Source: Bacteroidales bacterium (GTDB lineage Bacteria; Bacteroidota; Bacteroidia; Bacteroidales; Prolixibacteraceae). From it: 41,905 nt of DNA. The stretch lies in the NCBI GenBank assembly GCA_038325635.1, contig JBBQJE010000001.1:1-41905 (forward strand), in the 5' to 3' direction. The notes beneath the pieces were generated by a model. That model had not been told where the DNA came from and made no database searches. It saw only the letters and a list, made by a program, of their open reading frames with translations. The first letter of the stretch is position 1, and every line of letters begins with the position of its first letter. Below, piece by piece: positions 5,979 to 23,428 of the stretch. The translations under genes and the position numbers were made by a program.

Positions 5979-6052
5979 CGGTCTGGACGGGACTCGAACC
6001 CGCGACCCCCTGCGTGACAGGCAGGTATTCTAACCAACTGAACTACCAAACC
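5979..6052 (-). tRNA. tRNA-Asp (anticodon GTC), copy 1
   Basis: The minus strand reads GGTTTGGTAGTTCAGTTGGTTAGAATACCTGCCTGTCACGCAGGGGGTCGCGGGTTCGAGTCCCGTCCAGACCG. It folds as a cloverleaf with a 7-bp acceptor stem, anticodon loop CTGTCAC and T-loop TTCGAGT. No CCA is encoded. Confidence 0.9.
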
Positions 6053-6074: not shown

Positions 6075-6148
6075 CGGTCTGGACGGGACTCGAACCCGCG
6101 ACCCCCTGCGTGACAGGCAGGTATTCTAACCAACTGAACTACCAAACC
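6075..6148 (-). tRNA. tRNA-Asp (anticodon GTC), copy 2
   Basis: 74 nt identical to copy 1, separated from it by a 22-nt spacer. Confidence 0.9.
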
Positions 6149-12606: not shown

Positions 12607-12715
12607 ACCTCTACATATTCGAGATATTTATTCGTCACAATATTTTTTATACTCTACATAAATTTATAAATATCTCTTTATATTAATACTTTATATTTTT
12701 TTATACCTCTACATA
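12607..12715 (+). promoter_or_regulatory. three direct repeats (core CTCTACATA, two with TACCTCT) upstream of the DUF47/PiT-LuxR operon
   Basis: atTACCTCTACATAtt starts at 12605, ttataC-TCTACATAaattta has CTCTACATA at 12652, and ttataCCTCTACATAtttat has it at 12707. Core-to-core spacing is 43 and 55 bp. The last copy is about 90 bp before the ATG at 12806. Confidence 0.4.
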
Positions 12716-13455: not shown

Positions 13456-15213
13456 ATGATCTTACTTTTGTTCATATCAGGTGGTCTTTTCCTTGGATGG
13501 TCTTTAGGAGCCAACGGTGCAGCCAATTTATTTGGTACCGCGGTGGGCACCAAAATAATTAAATTCAAAAAAGCAGCATTAATTTCTGGAATATTTGTAA
13601 TACTTGGAGCATTAATGCATGGACAAGGAGGAGCAGATACCCTCAACAAACTGGGATCAATAGATGCACTTGGCGGAGCATTTACCGTATCATTATGTGC
13701 AGGCTTAACAATTTTTGCGCTCAGCTATTACAAGTTGCCTGCTTCAGCCACCCAGGCCATTGTAGGTGCCATTTTGGGATGGTGTTTCTTTACTAAAACT
13801 GGATTCGACAATACAACACTAAAAACAATTGCAATAAGTTGGATTTCAGCCCCTATACTAGGAGCATTACTTGCGCCACTTCTTTACCTTCTGCTTAGGT
13901 TTTACATGCAAAAAAGCAGGCTGCACATCATCAAACTTGATTTTTTTATCCGCGTGGCACTAGTCGTTGTAGGGGCATTTGGTGCCTATAGTCTTGGTGC
14001 GAACAACATCGCCAACGTAATGGGAGTTTTCCTATCTTCCTTTCCTGATTTAAGTTTTAATCTGGGATTTACTATACTTAGTGGAACCCAGTTGCTTTTT
14101 TTCTTAGGCGGACTTGCTATATCCGCTGGAATATATTCAAATGGCCGTAAAGTAATCGAAACCGTCGGCAACGGAATCATGGAGTTGACTCCGGAGGCGG
14201 CAATTGTTGTTGTATTTACACAGGCACTAATTCTTTTGGCATTCTCTTCCGTTACAATTTCTCATGCCTTACATTCAATCGGAATACCTGAATTACCGCA
14301 GGTTCCTGTTTCCGGTTCACAGGTTGTAATTGGCTCAATCATCGGAATCAGTCTTTTGAAAGGTGTTAATGAAGTTAAATTCAAATTGTTTGGCAATATA
14401 CTGACCGGTTGGATCCTTACCCCTCTAATTGCCCTAATTACCACATTCTTCTCACTCTTTATCGTTCAAAACGTATTTAAGATTATTGTTTCCAAATCGG
14501 AACATTCTCCGGAAACGGCTTTACAATCAGTTGTTACAAGACCAACTGAGGTAATCAATGTTCCTGTATCAGGTAATATTCCTCTTTTCATAGCGAGTAT
14601 CGTCCTTGTTTGTGTTGTCGCACTTATCGTATACCTCCAATTGCGTAAGTACCAGCTCAGCATTCAAATTCAAAGTAAAAAAAGCATTGGAGAGTCGCAA
14701 TACAGTGAGATGCAAAGGGCTCTAACGGACATTGAAATCAAAACCGTTCAACTTGAAAACAGTACGTTGGCCAGCCGACTGCAAGAAAAACGCAACGAGG
14801 TCGTCAATTTTGCACTCAATATCAGCGAACAACGCAGATTTCTTGACATGCTTGCTAAGAGGATAGAAGAAGCATATCATGAAGAGGAGACCACCAAACG
14901 AAAAGGAATTTTGAAAGAATTACTGACATCGTTACATCAAAAGATGTCCTTCTCTCACGAACTGGACGACCTATACCTGAAAGCAGAAAAAATACACCAC
15001 GACTTTCCTGCCAAGATTAATGAGAAATTTCCAGATCTAACTGAACAGGAAAAAAGACTAACCATTTTACTTCGTGTTGGGTTCTCAAGTAAAGAGATCG
15101 CATCAATTATGAATATCACCCCTAAAAGTGTGGAGATCAGCCGATATAGGCTTAGAAAAAAAATAAATATAGAGAATAAAGTCAATCTAACTCAATTCAT
15201 TAAAAGCATTTGA
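13456..15213 (+). CDS. PiT (PHO4) family membrane domain fused to a TM anchor, coiled coil and LuxR/GerE-type HTH
   Basis: 585 aa. Residues 1-345 carry the two PiT signature repeats, but as LGANGAANLFGTAVG (Gly21, nt 13516-13518) and LGANNIANVMG (Asn184, nt 14005-14007). An extra TM helix (IPLFIASIVLVCVVALIVYL) and about 130 aa of heptad-like helix follow. The protein ends in LTEQEKRLTILLRVGFSSKEIASIMNITPKSVEISRYRLRKKI, starting at nt 15037. Confidence 0.8.
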   Translation: MILLLFISGGLFLGWSLGANGAANLFGTAVGTKIIKFKKAALISGIFVILGALMHGQGGADTLNKLGSIDALGGAFTVSLCAGLTIFALSYYKLPASATQAIVGAILGWCFFTKTGFDNTTLKTIAISWISAPILGALLAPLLYLLLRFYMQKSRLHIIKLDFFIRVALVVVGAFGAYSLGANNIANVMGVFLSSFPDLSFNLGFTILSGTQLLFFLGGLAISAGIYSNGRKVIETVGNGIMELTPEAAIVVVFTQALILLAFSSVTISHALHSIGIPELPQVPVSGSQVVIGSIIGISLLKGVNEVKFKLFGNILTGWILTPLIALITTFFSLFIVQNVFKIIVSKSEHSPETALQSVVTRPTEVINVPVSGNIPLFIASIVLVCVVALIVYLQLRKYQLSIQIQSKKSIGESQYSEMQRALTDIEIKTVQLENSTLASRLQEKRNEVVNFALNISEQRRFLDMLAKRIEEAYHEEETTKRKGILKELLTSLHQKMSFSHELDDLYLKAEKIHHDFPAKINEKFPDLTEQEKRLTILLRVGFSSKEIASIMNITPKSVEISRYRLRKKINIENKVNLTQFIKSI

Positions 15214-15290: not shown

Positions 15291-16676
15291 ATGAAAAACA
15301 GTTTTAAAATTGGGTTATTTGTGGTGATGATTTTTTCCACCGGCAGCCTGCTAAAAGGTCAGGGTCATGTCGCAATAGGTCATGACTCAGACTCAGTCCG
15401 TTACAATGCTTATGGGCAAAAGGTTATGCGATCTGATGCTGTTCCGGAGTATAGAAACGGTATTCTTTCGTTTGAGTCGCCAGATAAGATGTTTCGGACC
15501 TGGTTCGACCTTCGTGTTAATTTTGACGGAGCCTATTACTTCGACAAGAATGCACTGAATCCAATCGGCAGTGGCGTTATGTTACGTCGTTTGCGATTTG
15601 CCATGAAAACAGTACTTTACAAGCACTGGACCGGTGAAGTTGATTTGAATTTTGCCAATGGTTTGGATGTGAAAGATGCATTCATCGGGTACCGCGATGA
15701 CGATCTGAAATATTATTTTAAGGCGGGTTATTTCAAGGAACCTATTTGTGCGGAAACCACAACAACTTCGCGTTACCAAACATTTATTGAGGAACCATTC
15801 ATGACCACTTTTGCTCCTGCCCGTCAATTGGGCATAGGTGTTTCAAAATGGGATAAGAAGTATTTGGCTGCCGTTGGTATCCATTTTCAGGATGTTGAAA
15901 ATGCTCCATTGGTCGCTTTCACCCAAAATGTAAACAAAGCAGGCGGCACAGATGAAGGTTATTCAGCAAGCGGCAAATTTGTTTTCAAACCGATTAGCGA
16001 ATCGGACAGAGTGATACACCTTGGGGTTTCAGGATCATACCGTACTCCAAAAACAAGTTACGAGTTTCCCAACACTTTAAGATATTCAACTCGTGACATG
16101 ACTTCTGTTAACCGCAAAAAATATCTCGATAGCGACGATATTGCCCACGTGAAAAGTAACACTTTGTTTGGAGGTGAACTTTTTGCCAGCTATAAAAATT
16201 TCAAATTTGCCAGTGAGTATATGCAAACCAATGTTACCAGGGAAACTGGTTTTGAGAAATATAAGGCCAACGGCATGTATGCTTCGGTCGCATATTTGTG
16301 GTTTGGCGGCAGATACAGGTACAACGATGAAGAAGGTGAATACACCCAGATATCCCGCGGGAAAAAATGGGGCGATATTGAAACAGCTTTCCGTTTTGAC
16401 TACATCAATTTTAACGATAAAACTGCACAAATCATGGGTGGTAGCGCCAATGGGTATACTGCAGGAATTACTTACCATGTCAATTACAACGTAAAATTTA
16501 TGCTCAATTACTCCTATATTGATCATGATAGATATGCCAACGGTAAAGGTAAATTATTCGTAGGTCATGACTCCGGTGGAAATCTTACTTCAGATTACAG
16601 TAAGATTACTGAAGCAGCTGGTAAAGGCGGAGAAGATTACGGTTTCATCCAGGCAAGAGTAGAAATTGATTTTTAA
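15291..16676 (+). CDS. phosphate-selective porin O/P family outer-membrane protein
   Basis: 461 aa with a signal peptide. The motifs LRRLRFAMK...GEVDLNFANG...KDAFIGY and a C-terminal aromatic residue (EIDF) are typical of the OprO/OprP-like family. Confidence 0.75.
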   Translation: MKNSFKIGLFVVMIFSTGSLLKGQGHVAIGHDSDSVRYNAYGQKVMRSDAVPEYRNGILSFESPDKMFRTWFDLRVNFDGAYYFDKNALNPIGSGVMLRRLRFAMKTVLYKHWTGEVDLNFANGLDVKDAFIGYRDDDLKYYFKAGYFKEPICAETTTTSRYQTFIEEPFMTTFAPARQLGIGVSKWDKKYLAAVGIHFQDVENAPLVAFTQNVNKAGGTDEGYSASGKFVFKPISESDRVIHLGVSGSYRTPKTSYEFPNTLRYSTRDMTSVNRKKYLDSDDIAHVKSNTLFGGELFASYKNFKFASEYMQTNVTRETGFEKYKANGMYASVAYLWFGGRYRYNDEEGEYTQISRGKKWGDIETAFRFDYINFNDKTAQIMGGSANGYTAGITYHVNYNVKFMLNYSYIDHDRYANGKGKLFVGHDSGGNLTSDYSKITEAAGKGGEDYGFIQARVEIDF

Positions 16677-16688
16677 TTACATAGAACC

Positions 16689-18296
16689 ATGAAAAAGATA
16701 TTATTATTTATTGTTCTTTTCTCCAGCGCTTTACTTTTCAAAGCCTGCGTAAAAGATGAAGTATACGTTGACCCGAACCAACAACCCGGATCGGATATTA
16801 AACTATTGATTAATGAAGTTTCATCCAATGCAGGAGATCCTATTCCAGACTGGATTGAAATTTACAATCCGGGAAGTTCCGATATCGATATTACCGGATT
16901 TGGCGTATATGATAAAGTTGCGGCTATTTTCAAATTCCCCGCAGGAACTAAAGTTCCGGCCAAAGGGTATTTTGTTGTCCTTTGTGATGTGGCCACGGCG
17001 GCAACAGATCCAACTAATGTAGCTGCTTTTGGTATATCATCAGCAGGAGAGGGCGTTTCGCTCGTTGACAAAAATCTGGCAGTAATCGATCAGGTTACTG
17101 TTCCTGCTATGCCACTTGGTATTTCATACGCCCGCATACCTGATGGAGGTCCTACATTTACTAATGCCAATCCGACAAAAGGCAAGGCCAACAGCAATAC
17201 CAATAGTCCGCCGGCAATTGTTGCAACTGACATAACGAATGTAAATGATAATGAGCGGTATAAATTGAATATTACAGTTTCAGATGCATCAGGCTTGGGT
17301 GATGTAAAAATTTTCTACCAATCCTCGACTGAAGCCTCCTTTACCAGCATGGCACCTCTTGGAAGTGGATTATACACTTTCACTTTCCCATTGTTCAAAA
17401 TGGGTGAAACAGTCAAATACTATATTGAAGCAGCTGATGCGACTGGACTAAAATCCTATTACCCAATTTCGGCGCCGGCTACTCCGGGAACATTTACAGT
17501 AAAGGATGGTCTTGCACTTTTTACGAATGTTTCGCTCTCTTCAAATAACCCTCCGGCCAACGCAATGGTTACCGTCAATGCAACTCTATTTGACACCGGT
17601 GGTACTTCTGAAGCAAAATTGTATTACACAGTTAATTCTGAAGATGCCAATGCAAAGCTGACAGTAACGATGTCTTTGGTAAATGGTATTTGGACCGGCG
17701 ATATTCCGGGACAAAGTAACAATGCAATCATCCGATATTACCTAAGAGCCGTCGACAGCAAGGCTCAAAAATCCTATTATCCGATGGAAACATACGATGC
17801 AGCAGGTGTTGTGACCAGTACTTTCAATCATGACCTGGGTTCAACCTGGCCAAAAATCACGGTTGCTCCTCCGCCAAATTGGGCAGCAATCGTTCTGAAT
17901 GAAGTATGTGGTCAGCAGACTCCGGATGATGACTGGGTTGAATTCTTCAATAATTCAGATGCAGAAGTGGATATCAGCGGAATGAAGCTTATAAAGGACG
18001 GTGCTGTTGCAACTCCAATCTGGACAGCCCCGTCGGGGACAAAGATTGCTGCAAAAGCCTATAAAGTCGTTGCAACATTGCCAGCCGGTACCGGTTTGTT
18101 GGCAGGAATTTCAAATACTAAAGTTATCAAACTAGAAATGACGACACCTGCCGGAACCGTTGTAAGTACCTTCGAAAAAACGGCCAGTAATTTTCCAACC
18201 GGACATCCTGCTGACGGAAGCTACCAACGTACACCGAACGCAACAGGCGACTGGGCGGTAAAAACAGCTTATACAAAAGGGGCTGCCAATAATTAA
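16689..18296 (+). CDS. lipoprotein with two lamin-tail domains (LTD) flanking duplicated Ig-like modules
   Basis: 535 aa with lipobox LLFKAC. LTD signatures LINEVSSNAGDPIPDWIEIYNPG (N-terminal) and VLNEVCGQQTPDDDWVEFFNNS (C-terminal). There is an internal duplication (VKYYIEAADATGLKSYYP vs IRYYLRAVDSKAQKSYYP). Confidence 0.7.
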   Translation: MKKILLFIVLFSSALLFKACVKDEVYVDPNQQPGSDIKLLINEVSSNAGDPIPDWIEIYNPGSSDIDITGFGVYDKVAAIFKFPAGTKVPAKGYFVVLCDVATAATDPTNVAAFGISSAGEGVSLVDKNLAVIDQVTVPAMPLGISYARIPDGGPTFTNANPTKGKANSNTNSPPAIVATDITNVNDNERYKLNITVSDASGLGDVKIFYQSSTEASFTSMAPLGSGLYTFTFPLFKMGETVKYYIEAADATGLKSYYPISAPATPGTFTVKDGLALFTNVSLSSNNPPANAMVTVNATLFDTGGTSEAKLYYTVNSEDANAKLTVTMSLVNGIWTGDIPGQSNNAIIRYYLRAVDSKAQKSYYPMETYDAAGVVTSTFNHDLGSTWPKITVAPPPNWAAIVLNEVCGQQTPDDDWVEFFNNSDAEVDISGMKLIKDGAVATPIWTAPSGTKIAAKAYKVVATLPAGTGLLAGISNTKVIKLEMTTPAGTVVSTFEKTASNFPTGHPADGSYQRTPNATGDWAVKTAYTKGAANN

Positions 18297-18334
18297 CTAC
18301 AATGAGATTCTATTCAACCGATCCTTCTGTCCGG

Positions 18335-18360
18335 CCGCAATCGCTTCAAAGCGATTGCGG
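18335..18360 (+). other. perfect 10-bp-stem hairpin between the LTD and beta-propeller genes
   Basis: ccgcaatcgc (18335-18344), loop ttcaaa, gcgattgcgg (18351-18360). No T-tract follows. Confidence 0.6.
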
Positions 18361-18379
18361 ATCTGACAGCTCATGCAGC

Positions 18380-19108
18380 ATGCTTATTCTGATAGTCATC
18401 ATACTATTCTGCCAAAGTTGTTCAAAAAAGGCAGATGACGGATCGGTTAGTCTGATTCCCATTGAAGTACACAAACTGAATCTGCCGGAACCATCGGATC
18501 TCTGTTTTGGTCCGGGAAATCAAATACTCTATACGGTAAGTGATAATACCGCTAAAGTTTATAAGATAACTATTCAAGGTAAAATTCTGGAGACGCTTCC
18601 ATTTGTTGGCAATGACCTGGAGGGAGTATGTTATGTAAATGATCAATTTCTGTATGTAGCACAGGAACGTTTGCGGAAAATTACAAAATTGGATCTTCAG
18701 GGTAATGTGATTGCCGAAGCTTCTATCCCGGTTGAGATAAACGACCTGAATTCAGGATTGGAAGGAATTGCATACAATACCCTAAACAGATGCTTTTACA
18801 TCCTAAATGAAGTGAATCCAGGCCTCTTAATTATAACAGACGAAAATTTTAGTGTGCTCAAAAAGATCACCTTATCGTTTGCGGCTGATTATTCCGGGAT
18901 TTGCGTAGACAACCAGAATCAGGAACTTTGGATTCTCAGTGATGTTTCAGCAAGTGTTAATCGCTGCACGCTCGAAGGGCAACTAATTGAAAAATTTAGA
19001 ATTCCTGTCAACAATCCTGAGGGAATAGCTCTGGATGTAGAAAATCGCCTCCTGTACATTGTAAGTGACCAGGAGGGGACACTTTATAAATTTCAATTAA
19101 ACAAATAA
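18380..19108 (+). CDS. SdiA-regulated-domain (YjiK-like beta-propeller) lipoprotein
   Basis: I start this gene at ATG 18380 (MLILIVIILFCQSCSKK, a lipoprotein-type signal) rather than the tracked 18302, which would translate through the hairpin. Repeated EGI/EGV blades (LEGVCY, LEGIAY, PEGIAL) and a PEPSDLCF-type motif resemble the SdiA-regulated family. Confidence 0.6.
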   Translation: MLILIVIILFCQSCSKKADDGSVSLIPIEVHKLNLPEPSDLCFGPGNQILYTVSDNTAKVYKITIQGKILETLPFVGNDLEGVCYVNDQFLYVAQERLRKITKLDLQGNVIAEASIPVEINDLNSGLEGIAYNTLNRCFYILNEVNPGLLIITDENFSVLKKITLSFAADYSGICVDNQNQELWILSDVSASVNRCTLEGQLIEKFRIPVNNPEGIALDVENRLLYIVSDQEGTLYKFQLNK

Positions 19109-19116
19109 AATCAATT

Positions 19117-19758
19117 ATGGCACAAGAAGAATTAAAAGTCGGTGAAATCTCAAAACCAAGGTTCGAATTTCGCTCCTTCGGTCAAAATTTTGACAATGCT
19201 GCCAAAAGAATGGCACGCTTTTCGGTTCCTATTCCTGAAAAAGTTTGGGAACGTTACTCTGATGAAATCTACATCCTTTCCAGAACCAATGACATCAACA
19301 ATACCAAAGTTCGTGACGGATTGATGGACATAAAAACTTTTGTAAAAAACGTTGATGGATTGGAACAATGGAATCCATTGATGAAAGCCGAATTTCCCAT
19401 CTCCAGAAAAATACTGGTCGAAGAGGTTTTCCCTGCTTTCAAGGTTGATATGCCTGAATTAACAAAGGAGAGTTACATTTTTGAGGAGTTCCTCGAGATG
19501 ATAAATATTCATCCTGATTTACAAGCAGTTAAAGTGCACAAACAACGTTTTGGATACATGGTTAACAATACGATCTGTGAATATGGAGAATGTCTTTTCA
19601 ATGGAGCGCGTGTTGTAACGATCAATTCAGAGTCAACGGAAGTTGAAGACATCAAGAAAACGATCAGAGATATCGGTCTTGCAGGAGTTGAGAACATCAA
19701 TTATTTGCAAGCAATAAAAAGAGTGATTGGAATGATTAACAGACCTTTAGCAAATTAA
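19117..19758 (+). CDS. hypothetical protein, possibly a degenerate CYTH-like paralogue
   Basis: 213 aa. Starts MAQEE with the same 12 nt (ATGGCACAAGAA) as the next gene. RFEFRSF sits where EIERKFL (ExExK) sits in the neighbour, and VHKQRFGY...VVTINSES parallels IDKTRYEV...VVAEVELS. Confidence 0.45.
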   Translation: MAQEELKVGEISKPRFEFRSFGQNFDNAAKRMARFSVPIPEKVWERYSDEIYILSRTNDINNTKVRDGLMDIKTFVKNVDGLEQWNPLMKAEFPISRKILVEEVFPAFKVDMPELTKESYIFEEFLEMINIHPDLQAVKVHKQRFGYMVNNTICEYGECLFNGARVVTINSESTEVEDIKKTIRDIGLAGVENINYLQAIKRVIGMINRPLAN

Positions 19759-19763
19759 TTATC

Positions 19764-20234
19764 ATGGCACAAGAAATAGAACGCAAATTTCTGGTTACCA
19801 GTGACGGCTTTAAAGCTGCAGCTAGTAAATCGACAAGAATAACACAAGGATACCTTTCTTCACTTCCTGAGCGCACAGTCCGCGTGCGAATCAAAGGGGA
19901 CAAAGGATACATTACCATCAAAGGGATTGGTAGCGCCTCCGGGGCTTCCCGTTACGAATGGGAAAAAGAGATCCCCGTGGGAGAAGTGGATGAACTTTTG
20001 AAAATCTGTGAAGCGGGAGTAATCGATAAAACCCGTTATGAAGTAAAATCAGGCATTCATACTTTCGAAGTGGATGAATTTTACGGCGAAAATCAGGGCT
20101 TGGTCGTGGCAGAAGTTGAACTCTCAAGTGAAGAGGAAGCGTACGTCAAACCAGCTTGGATTGGACAAGAGGTGACAGGAGATGTAAAATACTATAACTC
20201 CATGCTGATGAAAACGCCTTTCACGAAGTGGTAG
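19764..20234 (+). CDS. CYTH-domain protein (triphosphate tunnel metalloenzyme, inorganic triphosphatase-like)
   Basis: 156 aa. N-terminal ExExK signature MAQEIERKFLV, RVRIKG, YEWEKEI, FEVDEF and AEVEL strands are typical of small TTM/CYTH proteins. Confidence 0.85.
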   Translation: MAQEIERKFLVTSDGFKAAASKSTRITQGYLSSLPERTVRVRIKGDKGYITIKGIGSASGASRYEWEKEIPVGEVDELLKICEAGVIDKTRYEVKSGIHTFEVDEFYGENQGLVVAEVELSSEEEAYVKPAWIGQEVTGDVKYYNSMLMKTPFTKW

Positions 20235-20294: not shown

Positions 20295-21923
20295 ATGAGC
20301 AGTTTAGAAAAAGAATTGACAGCATCCGAACAACCTGAAAATATTCATGATGTCCTCGATATGAACAATTACCGTATCGAGAAGCTACCAAAAGTTCACA
20401 AAAGCGGTTTCGAGAAATGGATGGCGTTACTCGGTGCACCAATAGCTGCCATTTTCTTTATTTTGATTTACTATTTTTCTGATTTCTCATTTCTGGATTT
20501 CATTGATCATTCGGCGCTAAAAGGGGATGCGCTGGAACGTTTTCACGCACTTGGCGAAGCTAAATTCTTGCGCATCAATTATGCTATGTTGGCTATTTTT
20601 GTTACTGCCATCATTTTGTGGATAACGGAAGCAATTCCGAATTATCTCACCTCTTTTTTTGTCATCATAGCCATGGTTCTCACCGGAGTGACTACCGAAA
20701 AGAATGCCTATGCCCAATTGGGACATCCGGTGATGTGGCTGAACATCCTCTCTTTTATTCTAGCAAGCATGTTGGTAAGCACTAAAGTTGCTAAAAGGTT
20801 TGCCTTATGGTTTGTAATCAGATTTGGGAAAAATGCTACGGGAATTTTCCTGAGTTTCATCGTTATCAATGTTGTCTTGTCTGTATTTATCTCTGCTACC
20901 ACTGCAAAAGCTACTATATTGTTACCTATCTTCATGGTAATTGCGGCAATTTACGGTGCTACCCCTGACAACAGAAACAATTTTGGCCGAAATATCGTTT
21001 TGCAAAATTTGTTTCAGATCAATATTGGAGCCAGCGGGTTTATCACTGGGTCGGGAGCCAATCTCTTAGCCGGTTCAATGATAGCAGGCGCAATGGGATG
21101 GTCGATTTTCAGTTTTCAGGATTGGTTCATTGCGGCCTTTCCTCTGGCGATTTGCCTTATTCTCATTGGATGGATCGTGGGTACCAAAATCATCTTTCCA
21201 ATGAAAGCAGAAGAACAGGTTCCACAGATTCAGGGTGGAATTGATCGTTTAAAACAGGAGTACCGGTTATTGGGTAAAATGAGTTTAAATGAATACAAAG
21301 CAATCGCCATCTTTGTTGCCGTGGTCGCCCTTTGGGCAACAGATAAGCAACATGGCATCTCGCAAACAGCCGTTGCATTTATGGGTGCTTTTGTTGCGCT
21401 CTTACCAGGAATAGGTGTTGTAAAGTGGAATGAAGTTGATATCCCCTGGCATCTTTTGCTCTTCTCGGCCGGAGCCTATACTTTAGGGGCAGGCCTTGAA
21501 GCGACCAACCTGGCATCCACGATTGTCGATGCCCTATTTTCCAAATTCGGCATTTCTTCAACGACCCCCTTCTGGATGCTTTTCTGTGGATTAACTTTTG
21601 CCATGATATTCAGTGCCCTATTTTTCGAATCCAAGACAATGAGAGCCTTAATATTTATTCCAATAGCTATCGGGGTTGCACAAAAATTCAAGATTCCTGT
21701 ATTAAGTCTGGCACTTCCGGTTGCACTCCTGATTGAGCATGTTTATGTTCTTCCATTTAATAGCAAACCTGCGGCACTCCTCTATACTACAGGACATTAC
21801 AGTTGGAGCGACACCTTCAAATTTGGATTTACAATGATGGCTATAAGCTGGTTGACTTTACTACTTTACAGCGAAACCTATTTGAGGTTACTTGGCTACA
21901 CTCCCAATGGTGTATTTTTCTAA
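20295..21923 (+). CDS. DASS/SLC13-family anion:sodium symporter
   Basis: 542 aa, polytopic, with an inverted-repeat architecture and hairpin-type motifs (SATTAKATILLPI, LPFNSKPAALLYTTG) typical of the SLC13/DASS family. The substrate is not inferable. Confidence 0.75.
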   Translation: MSSLEKELTASEQPENIHDVLDMNNYRIEKLPKVHKSGFEKWMALLGAPIAAIFFILIYYFSDFSFLDFIDHSALKGDALERFHALGEAKFLRINYAMLAIFVTAIILWITEAIPNYLTSFFVIIAMVLTGVTTEKNAYAQLGHPVMWLNILSFILASMLVSTKVAKRFALWFVIRFGKNATGIFLSFIVINVVLSVFISATTAKATILLPIFMVIAAIYGATPDNRNNFGRNIVLQNLFQINIGASGFITGSGANLLAGSMIAGAMGWSIFSFQDWFIAAFPLAICLILIGWIVGTKIIFPMKAEEQVPQIQGGIDRLKQEYRLLGKMSLNEYKAIAIFVAVVALWATDKQHGISQTAVAFMGAFVALLPGIGVVKWNEVDIPWHLLLFSAGAYTLGAGLEATNLASTIVDALFSKFGISSTTPFWMLFCGLTFAMIFSALFFESKTMRALIFIPIAIGVAQKFKIPVLSLALPVALLIEHVYVLPFNSKPAALLYTTGHYSWSDTFKFGFTMMAISWLTLLLYSETYLRLLGYTPNGVFF

Positions 21924-21964
21924 TTTTAAAGCATCAACATAAATGTTTCTCACAAAATCAGGAT

Positions 21965-23428
21965 ATGATAGATGAAAATGTAAAGATTCATGATCAGTTT
22001 TCACTGGAAATTAAAGTGGGCTTTGTTGCCAGGAAGAAGCAAAAAATTAACGATTTTGCTTTCAATATTTGGGTATTTATACCTAATAGTCTTGATATTA
22101 ACAGATTCACCTATACCAAAAATGATTTTTACAGGGATATGACTTCCCATATTCGTCTGATTACTCCCTCCTTTCTTCTTCGGAATATTGCTGATCACAC
22201 AACACCACCTGTCAGTTCTTTGGAAAAGTCGTTCAACAGCCTTGCAGTTGCACCAACCCGAACAAACAAAGACAATTACGAATACCAGTTAAAAATGTTT
22301 TTGTCTATCCTGAAGAGTTCTCTCCGGGATGAAGTAGCCCATGCCATCAACAGCAAACTGGATAATGACCGGGATTTTCTGATTCAATCGTATTTGGTGA
22401 ACGTAGAATCAATTGCCACGTATTACCGTTCACTTCGCCGAATTATTAATGCACCATCCATCTCAGATGAATTAATGGATTACTTTCTGTTCGGAGATGA
22501 ATTTATGTCTAACTTGATTGAGTCTCACACTTTCCGATTGATTCAACTGTTAAAGAAGAGTCATCCTGAAAATTATGAAAGGATGAAAGGAGACTTATTA
22601 GGATTGATCAACCGCGAAATTGATTACAAAAAAGAAAAAGGATATCTGGTAGTCGAAAAACAGAACAAAGAAAACAACCAAGAGCTCGTTTTCCGGCAAG
22701 GTATGCTTAAAAAATATGCCGAAAGCAATCTTTTTCTTGATGTAAAGAAGAGAAAAGACGGAGTTTGGGTTGAACAGATTCTGTTCAGCCTTGCAGCAGG
22801 CTTATCCATGATTTTTGCTACAGTTATTGCCTTCTCCTTTCAGCTAAAATATGGCAACCTAACGATGCCTTTTTTCGTTGCCCTGATTGTCAGTTATATG
22901 CTGAAAGACAGGATTAAAGAGTTGGCACGCTTCTATTTTGCACATAAGCTAAACAAGCGCTATTTTGATCACAAAATCAACATCAGCATACACGACAACG
23001 AGATAGGATGGGTGAGGGAAAGTATGGATTTTATTTCAGAACGGAATGTTCCTTTTGAAGTGCTAAATAAGCGGGATCGCTCATCCATTCTGGAGGCAAA
23101 CAACAGAGCTAGCCGCGAACGGATTATCCTTTACCGCACCCAGATGCAATTGAACAGGGAAAGCATAGATGCCAATAGTGAATATCCCATCGCCGGTGTC
23201 AACCAAATCCTACGCCTGAATATTTCAAATTTCATTCAAAAGATGGACAATGCTGAGTTCCCACTCTATTATCCTGATGAAGAAGATGGATATAAGATTG
23301 TTCCGGGGGAAAAAATTTACTACCTAAATATGATCGTACAAGCCAAAGAAGTCGAACAATGGGACTACAAAAGATATAGAATTGTCTTTAATCGCAAAGG
23401 AATTCAAAAAATAGAATCATTTGAATAA
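21965..23428 (+). CDS. uncharacterised membrane protein (two central TM helices)
   Basis: 487 aa from ATG 21965. The tracked start at 21803 would overlap the DASS gene by 121 nt. It has a helical N-terminal half, TM helices ILFSLAAGLSMIFATVIAFSF and MPFFVALIVSYML, and a C-terminal soluble domain. I recognise no family. Confidence 0.55.
   Translation: MIDENVKIHDQFSLEIKVGFVARKKQKINDFAFNIWVFIPNSLDINRFTYTKNDFYRDMTSHIRLITPSFLLRNIADHTTPPVSSLEKSFNSLAVAPTRTNKDNYEYQLKMFLSILKSSLRDEVAHAINSKLDNDRDFLIQSYLVNVESIATYYRSLRRIINAPSISDELMDYFLFGDEFMSNLIESHTFRLIQLLKKSHPENYERMKGDLLGLINREIDYKKEKGYLVVEKQNKENNQELVFRQGMLKKYAESNLFLDVKKRKDGVWVEQILFSLAAGLSMIFATVIAFSFQLKYGNLTMPFFVALIVSYMLKDRIKELARFYFAHKLNKRYFDHKINISIHDNEIGWVRESMDFISERNVPFEVLNKRDRSSILEANNRASRERIILYRTQMQLNRESIDANSEYPIAGVNQILRLNISNFIQKMDNAEFPLYYPDEEDGYKIVPGEKIYYLNMIVQAKEVEQWDYKRYRIVFNRKGIQKIESFE

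Follow-up and report, generated by a model that had tools for sequence, protein, structure and literature searches.

Can the fold of a phosphate transporter serve as the input of a transcription regulator? The question is raised by an open reading frame (ORF) in a 41,905-nucleotide stretch from a Prolixibacteraceae (Bacteroidales) bacterium (GenBank assembly GCA_038325635.1, contig JBBQJE010000001.1, positions 1 to 41,905; here, the window), in which a PiT-family permease domain and a LuxR-type helix-turn-helix (HTH) domain are joined in one polypeptide. In our reading, to which we give a probability of about 55%, the fusion is a one-component transcription regulator integrated into the membrane, with a domain of the PiT type, an elevator transporter, as its input. 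The initial annotation had proposed a phosphate sensor recruited from a transport-dead or transport-impaired PiT domain that lacks both signature aspartates. The part of this proposal that describes a one-component regulator in the membrane fits the architecture, the operon, and the upstream repeats, while Asn184, one of the two replacements, did not stand as a mark of recruitment.

Architecture and spread of the fusion protein

The PHO4/PiT and GerE/LuxR domains that had been read from the sequence by eye both score above their Pfam cutoffs, PHO4 (PF01384) with an E value of 1.1e-54 (186 bits versus a cutoff of 33.7) and GerE (PF00196) with an E value of 8.9e-10 (38.5 bits versus 23.5). The PHO4 match spans profile positions 2 to 348 of 350, so both repeats are covered. 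PHO4 and GerE/sigma-70 region 4 are the only domain matches in Pfam and NCBIfam; kinase and receiver domains are absent. An AlphaFold2 (AF2) model, made from 66 homologues with a mean predicted local distance difference test score (pLDDT) of 81.9, has the PiT helices, a disordered linker at amino acids (aa) 350 to 363 (pLDDT of <50), one unbroken helix of 100 residues (aa 375 to 474), three shorter helices, and the C-terminal HTH. The first ~23 residues of the long helix are hydrophobic, which bears out the extra transmembrane (TM) helix that had been noted after the PiT domain, and the HTH starts where it had been placed (Table 1). In a Foldseek search with this model, the top match and the sole strong match over the whole chain was the PDB entry 6l85 (E = 5.6e-13; TM-score, 0.67 on target), i.e., TmPiT of Thermotoga, the only solved PiT; the HTH gave local matches to the C-terminal domains of VraR and DosR (probability, 1.0; TM-score, 0.72 to 0.74). 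The linker is 14 to 57% identical even between close relatives.

Because both termini of TmPiT lie outside the cell and the fusion protein has one TM helix more, the stalk and the HTH are predicted to be cytoplasmic. The segments after TM1 (TKIIKFKK) and TM13 (RKYQ...SKK) are positively charged, in agreement with this topology. The TM helix, coiled coil, and HTH had also been taken for a common output module of Bacteroidota, a claim that we could not uphold: its sole support is that aa 382 to 578 weakly match the NCBIfam model of the BT3442 family, and when 1.4 Mb of fetched loci were scanned by motif for the TM-stalk-HTH module on other sensors, no more than a fragment turned up.

The 120 best protein matches, from many independent assemblies, are all ~581 to 586 aa long and carry PHO4 and GerE in one protein, so none of these orthologues is split into two genes. 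Their source names are “inorganic phosphate transporter” or [quoted passage not shown] A scan with one genome per species yielded 237 matching stretches, each from another species, and all those listed belong to Bacteroidota. Full-length homologues of the fusion are thus known from the genomes of at least 237 species, and the protein clusters that contain them number well over 100; 80 complete loci from different species were obtained, and there are about ten further, divergent PHO4-plus-GerE clusters. Carriers listed include Prolixibacteraceae/Tangfeifania, Paludibacter, Proteiniphilum, Petrimonas, Lentimicrobium, Rikenellaceae, Muribaculaceae, Dysgonamonadaceae, and Chitinophagaceae, nearly all of them metagenome-assembled genomes (MAGs). 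The closest among the matches listed are from Prolixibacteraceae/Tangfeifania (65 to 69% identity). One Paludibacter MAG, CAYNGF01, has two copies of the fusion gene and cassette on separate contigs, and the encoded proteins are 48% and 54 to 55% identical to the window protein (loci L073 and L084). The most divergent fusion found, in a Rikenellaceae MAG (L083; 38 to 39% identity), has Ser184 and the motif 1 sequence GAKDASN. The literature that we searched held no description of a PiT-HTH regulator, of its cassette, or of its repeat, in line with the initial annotation; databases carry automatic names only.

The anion site in the fusions and in stand-alone permeases

The two signature positions were located as annotated. 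In a phmmer alignment of the N-terminal 330 residues to TmPiT (6l85, from a search against PDB), Gly21 stands opposite D22 and Asn184 opposite D258; a profile of 176 family members aligned with TmPiT gives the identical register for both and sets Val253 opposite D327, the third Na-coordinating carboxylate. All three Na-coordinating carboxylates are therefore replaced in the window protein, by Gly, Asn, and Val. A compensating Asp one register off was considered and rejected: the two alignments agree, and TM1 and the TM6-equivalent helix contain none of the 10 acidic residues of the PiT domain, so there is no aspartate one register away. The fusion otherwise shares with TmPiT and human PiT1/PiT2 (SLC20) the same fold, with inverted repeats and with the G-x-N-x-x-x-N and P-x-S-x-[ST] motifs in register. 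Its hairpin-tip motifs, of the P-phi-S-x-T type, are PASAT (aa 95 to 99) and PVSGS (aa 284 to 288), each followed by Gln and not by His. It differs from these proteins by Gly/Asn/Val for D22/D258/D327, Gln for the hairpin His, and Leu for H254, and by the addition of the 13th TM helix, the stalk, and the DNA-binding domain.

A census of 176 nonredundant full-length fusion proteins separates what is particular to the window protein from what is common to the family. Position 184 is Asn in 175 proteins and Asp in none. Position 21 is Asp in 168, Asn in four, Ala in two, Gln in one, and Gly in one, the window protein; the lack of both aspartates thus applies to the window protein but is not a family trait. 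The hairpin residues S97 and S286 are invariant, the hairpin His pair of canonical PiTs is changed to Gln, and TmPiT H254 is changed to Leu. Four residues, H157, E247, E306, and W109, are invariant in the fusions and differ in stand-alone relatives (e.g., Phe at E247 and Ser at H157). From the predicted topology, H157, E247, and E306 would face the cytoplasm, where they are possible contacts with the stalk or with the protein of the DUF47 gene upstream.

For an outgroup, the PiT domain alone was searched against 1.84 billion representatives, with 155 matches at an E value of ≤1e-30. The nearest 150 almost all have GAND...GANN together with PVSTSQ, and most are stand-alone proteins of 300 to 360 aa; a further class of about 490 to 500 aa has an uncharacterized C-terminal extension of ~150 aa without an extra TM helix. 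In a stand-alone clade sampled with 120 proteins from Planctomycetota and Hydrogenedentes, position 21 is Asp in 105, Asn in 14, and Gly in 1, position 184 is Asn in 116 and Ser in 4, and the D327 position is Val in all 120. Three stand-alone loci that were inspected have a plain DUF47-pit pair amid housekeeping genes, the DUF47 gene (214 aa) lying directly upstream. These permeases share with the fusions a PiT domain that is 30 to 63% identical and has the same Asp/Asn motifs, Gln hairpin tips, Leu, and Val, whereas they lack TM13, stalk, HTH, the porin/CYTH/DASS cassette, the upstream repeat, and the H157/E247/E306/W109 set. On these comparisons, the fusion family is part of a DUF47-linked PiT subfamily, defined here as GAND...GANN; the window protein shows its hallmarks (N184, Q100, Q289, L180, and V253) and departs from it at position 21. 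Judging from the representatives, the ancestor of a large permease subfamily already had the motif 2 Asn and lacked the third carboxylate, and these traits are no adaptation to sensing. By themselves they therefore cannot show that transport is dead, and the idea that the motif 2 Asn marks a sensor was rejected, since stand-alone permeases share it.

Position 21 is another matter. In a neighbor-joining tree, the window protein lies in a subclade of 60 to 71% identity, which contains all eight fusions without Asp21. The residue was replaced at least four times independently there (by Gly, Gln, Ala, and Asn) and was kept by the basal member and one inner pair, and Asn20 is often Lys or Arg. Within this subclade, PiT domains share 64% identity, stalks share 67%, and HTHs share 90% (range, 85 to 93%), a sign of strong constraint on the output domain; the corresponding values in the main clade, which is about as divergent overall, are 71%, 43%, and 68%. 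That PiT identity falls below HTH identity points to a constraint on the anion site that was relaxed or altered while the output was kept, and the pattern, indicative as it is, is the one expected if transport was lost and signaling retained. The transport-dead reading is plausible for this subclade alone, whose members would probably be pure receptors or receptors with altered ligand binding. Most members of the fusion family have the residues of the permease subfamily intact and may still transport; they would then be true transceptors.

The cassette and its upstream repeats

The fusion gene belongs to a conserved, phosphorus-related gene cassette (Table 1) that we followed through 85 fetched fusion loci (L001 to L085) and that is also present in loci L089 and L090. 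The order DUF47, fusion, porin O/P, LTD, u213, CYTH, DASS, and membrane protein is kept in the 85 loci; the phytase-like beta-propeller gene is found in some of them only, and the flanking genes vary by lineage. DUF47 is directly upstream of the fusion in 81 of the 85 loci, the porin is present in 82, and CYTH is present in 68. Gaps of 5 to 77 bp between the cassette genes of the window suggest one operon, and intrinsic terminators within the cassette were not above chance. DUF47, u213, CYTH, and DASS are 60 to 93% identical to their window counterparts, compared with 45 to 69% for the fusion protein. By analogy with Staphylococcus aureus, in which the DUF47 protein PhoU2/PitR is located in the pit operon, the cassette's DUF47 protein is a probable PhoU-like partner or modulator.

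Table 1. Features of the fusion gene, its cassette, and the leader (window coordinates)
Feature	Position (nt)	Strand	Remarks
PiT-TM-helix-LuxR fusion ORF, entire	13456..15213	+	585 aa; open frame, Pfam, AF2, Foldseek
PHO4/PiT domain	13507..14439	+	aa 18-328 in Pfam; fold covers aa 1-339
Codon 21, GGT (Gly)	13516..13518	+	Opposite TmPiT D22 (Na1/Pi site)
Codon 184, AAC (Asn)	14005..14007	+	Opposite TmPiT D258 (Na2/Pi site)
Linker, variable and partly disordered	14473..14577	+	aa 340-374; predicted periplasmic
13th (additional) TM helix	14578..14646	+	aa 375-397, then RKYQ...SKK
Helical stalk, predicted cytoplasmic	14647..15036	+	Unbroken from TM13 to aa 474, then 3 shorter helices to aa 524
GerE/LuxR-type HTH	15037..15198	+	aa 528-581
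Three direct copies of A[AC]CT[CA]TACA	12608-12615, 12651-12658, 12706-12713	+	43 and 55 bp apart; candidate operator
DUF47/PhoU_div protein, 214 aa	12806..13450	+	PF01865, E = 5.3e-21; stops 5 bp before fusion gene
Phosphate-selective porin O/P family protein	15291..16676	+	PF07396, E = 3.8e-34; first gene downstream
LTD-domain protein	16689..18296	+	N-terminal hydrophobic segment; family search
SdiA-regulated/phytase-like beta-propeller protein	18302..19108	+	Family search
u213, cytoplasmic 213-aa hypothetical protein	19117..19758	+	Cassette conservation
CYTH (triphosphate tunnel metalloenzyme) protein	19764..20234	+	PF01928, E = 2.6e-17
DASS/Na_sulph_symp anion symporter	20295..21923	+	Generic DASS/SLC13 matches
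Membrane protein, two central TM segments	ORF 21803..23428	+	TTG start; true start probably further downstream

The most conserved gene of the cassette is u213, with 70 to 93% identity over the family as a whole; in many Bacteroidota lineages the identity is 80 to 93% (3357 matches), and the gene is always in the cassette. It gave no match in Pfam, in NCBIfam, or among PDB sequences; its AF2 model was unusable (pLDDT, 42.7) because the homologues are too alike; and hhalign detected no similarity to the adjacent CYTH protein. For the substrate of the DASS symporter, family searches returned nothing more specific than the generic matches. The last ORF (541 aa) had no family match; some 120 bp at its start overlap the DASS gene, and its homologues are 485 to 489 aa long, or 920 aa in L089 and L090.

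Upstream of the DUF47 gene, the 555-bp leader of the window holds three direct copies of TAC(C)TCTACATA, repeats of the ACCTCTACA type; three copies in 106 bp compare with 2.4 expected in the whole window. The same element emerged from a survey of 73 distinct regions upstream of DUF47, in which the top-ranked 8- to 10-mers are variants of A[AC]CT[CA]TACA. At least one copy is present in 68 of the 73 regions and at least two are present in 48, and the density is 4.1 per kb, about 20 times that in the loci overall (0.21 per kb). Copies concentrate 100 to 225 bp before the ATG and are mostly in the forward orientation (135 forward, 22 reverse). Pairs of copies on one strand at distances of up to 120 bp number 57 upstream of DUF47 versus 4 elsewhere in 1.37 Mb, and their spacings group at 11, 32, 43 to 44, 54 to 56, 66 to 68, 97 to 100, and 108 to 110 bp; by these multiples of ~11 bp, the copies are helically phased. 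In 20 regions, the proximal repeat lies 67 to 72 bp upstream of a Bacteroidetes-type −7 box (TAnnTTTG). The array thus looks like an activator-type site array and a candidate operator. It is absent upstream of the three stand-alone DUF47-pit operons. No tandem 11-bp Pho-box-like copies were seen between the strong sites of the window, and Rfam found no riboswitch or known RNA in the 555-bp leader.

Elsewhere in the window, Rfam recognized only two tRNA genes, in tandem on the reverse strand (5979 to 6052 and 6075 to 6148; equal scores, 23 bp apart). In the intergenic region after guaA, the 7-mer core CT[CA]TACA occurs as an inverted pair (28521 on the reverse and 28544 on the forward strand, 23 bp apart), possibly by chance or as part of a terminator.

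Proposed function and its alternatives

How could such a protein have arisen and worked? We propose that the ancestor was an ordinary DUF47-pit operon with a PiT of the subfamily whose motifs 1 and 2 already had Asp and Asn, respectively, and that, in Bacteroidota, the periplasmic C terminus of the permease was extended by one more TM helix, a long cytoplasmic helix, and a LuxR-type HTH. The fusion protein would dimerize like TmPiT; occupancy or cycling of the anion site would move the transport domain, and this motion, passed on by TM13 and the helical stalk, would alter the binding of the two HTHs. The HTH pair would bind the phased repeats upstream of its own operon and so control the cassette, with the DUF47 protein as a modulator in the manner of PhoU or PitR. 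Phosphate is the presumed ligand, and the direction of regulation is likewise a presumption. Taken as a whole, this would be a two-protein functional counterpart of Pst-PhoU-PhoR-PhoB. A fuller version, in which the PiT-HTH and DUF47 proteins read phosphate and switch on the cassette via the repeats, with the lineage of the window in mid-transition to a pure receptor, is offered tentatively and at less than even odds.

Studies of PiT mutants bear on this proposal in two ways. The TmPiT single mutants D22A and D258A keep phosphate binding (about 25 µM) with uptake reduced to 5% and 19%, respectively, so binding without transport is possible in the PiT fold; in human PiT2 (hPiT2), D28N and D506N abolish or strongly reduce uptake. 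However, the TmPiT double mutant D22A/D258A no longer binds phosphate, which makes phosphate sensing by the window protein less certain, not more, and binding is also lost in D327Q. With Gly, Asn, and Val at these positions, the window protein may have lost canonical phosphate binding. Further points likewise weigh against the proposed regulator. (i) The Gly21 codon, GGT, is one transition from GAT, and Gly is found in a single fusion sequence; it may be a recent mutation or a sequencing error. (ii) Stand-alone relatives with Asn/Asn or Gly/Asn at the two motifs exist, so loss of Asp21 alone is no proof of a switch to sensing. (iii) Of the heptad-rich helix originally described, the long helix stands in the AF2 model, but heptad periodicity is weak (the best register has hydrophobic residues at 55% of its a/d positions), and the stalk can be called a putative coiled coil at most. 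(iv) The repeat is asymmetric, its flanking logo having no palindromic partner, and would be an unusual site for LuxR-type HTHs that form a parallel dimer. (v) A PhoB-type or other regulator could bind the repeats in place of the fusion protein, an 11-bp phase being typical of Pho boxes too.

Among other explanations, the one that fares best, although we consider it unlikely, is a bifunctional transceptor whose PiT domain still transports phosphate (perhaps with fewer coupled Na+ or with H+) and whose flux, more than mere binding, sets the HTH, the window protein being weakly active. The Asp/Asn, Gln, and Val pattern is common to stand-alone DUF47-linked permeases, which presumably transport; the hairpin serines are invariant; and no part of the main-clade proteins is better conserved than the PiT domain. 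For the window protein, which has none of the three Na-coordinating carboxylates, this explanation is at odds with the loss or strong reduction of uptake in the hPiT2 and TmPiT mutants, and the cassette has its own highly conserved transporter of the DASS family.

It is less probable still that the PiT domain senses another anion (pyrophosphate, tripolyphosphate, phosphite, arsenate, or sulfate) at a site in which Asn, Gln, Leu, and Val replace Asp, His, His, and Asp. Although these residues are systematically unlike those of canonical PiTs, they are identical in stand-alone DUF47-pit operons that have no cassette. The cassette holds an O/P-type porin, a CYTH/triphosphatase-type protein, and a DASS anion symporter, and OprO-type porins prefer pyrophosphate; in NCBIfam, the PiT domain scores best with the model of the sulfate permease CysP, although far under its cutoff (82 versus 400 bits). 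On the other side, the P-x-S-x-[ST] motifs of the phosphate-holding hairpins are retained, and linkage to DUF47/PhoU is typical of phosphate systems.

Similarly improbable is a PiT domain that merely anchors or dimerizes the protein while sensing falls to the DUF47/PhoU-like protein or another partner, which would switch the HTH by binding to the stalk or to the cytoplasmic face. The constraint on the main-clade PiT domain, which, site residues included, is more strongly conserved than the rest of the protein, speaks against it, since a mere anchor is unlikely to be so constrained. The view draws on the higher conservation of DUF47 than of the fusion, on its adjacency in both fusion and stand-alone loci examined, on the fusion-specific invariant H157, E247, and E306 with their predicted cytoplasmic exposure, and on the degenerate motif 1 of the window's subclade. 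Finally, an assembly, frameshift, or gene-calling artefact, in which a separate pit gene and a gene for a membrane LuxR regulator were merged, can be dismissed given the uninterrupted frame and the two-domain homologues of equal length across assemblies, full loci, and divergent clusters.

The membrane-integrated regulator that we favor has partial counterparts in known systems. Like ToxR and CadC/LysP, it would have a membrane-tethered DNA-binding domain without phosphotransfer. In ToxR and CadC, an N-terminal winged-helix DNA-binding domain is connected by a single TM helix to a periplasmic sensor, and in CadC/LysP the transporter LysP serves as a sensor but is a separate protein, whereas the fusion has a covalent N-terminal 12-helix transporter domain and a C-terminal LuxR/GerE HTH. 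Ks-Amt5 (an Amt-histidine kinase), CbrA (with an SLC5-like domain), and UhpC also reuse a transporter fold as a signaling input; they signal through histidine kinases and response regulators, unlike the fusion, whose output is predicted to be direct DNA binding and whose transporter family is PiT. In Pst-PhoU-PhoR-PhoB and S. aureus pitR(phoU2)-pitA, a phosphate transporter and a PhoU-like protein feed a transcriptional response, and in the latter a DUF47 gene directly precedes the pit gene. The fusion differs from both in that it has no ABC transporter, kinase, or receiver and unites transporter and transcription factor in one polypeptide.

Mammalian PiT1/PiT2 have been reported to signal extracellular phosphate independently of uptake (Bon et al. 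2018, as cited in PMC7413737), and such transport-independent sensing by PiT/SLC20 proteins is an open question in mammalian phosphate homeostasis. A PiT domain wired to a transcriptional output, if our reading is true, would make PiT sensing genetically and biochemically tractable, the more so as natural variants with and without the key aspartate exist side by side. A compact phosphate-responsive pair of regulator and operator could also serve as a biosensor part. The analysis exposes a large PiT subfamily with the motif 2 Asn, currently annotated merely as “inorganic phosphate transporter,” and a cassette of eight to nine genes, including two conserved proteins of unknown function, for which we found no description in the literature. 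For the organisms themselves, our findings point to a route of phosphate regulation, not previously described, in anaerobic Bacteroidota, among them Prolixibacteraceae, Paludibacter, Proteiniphilum, Lentimicrobium, Rikenellaceae, and Chitinophagaceae.

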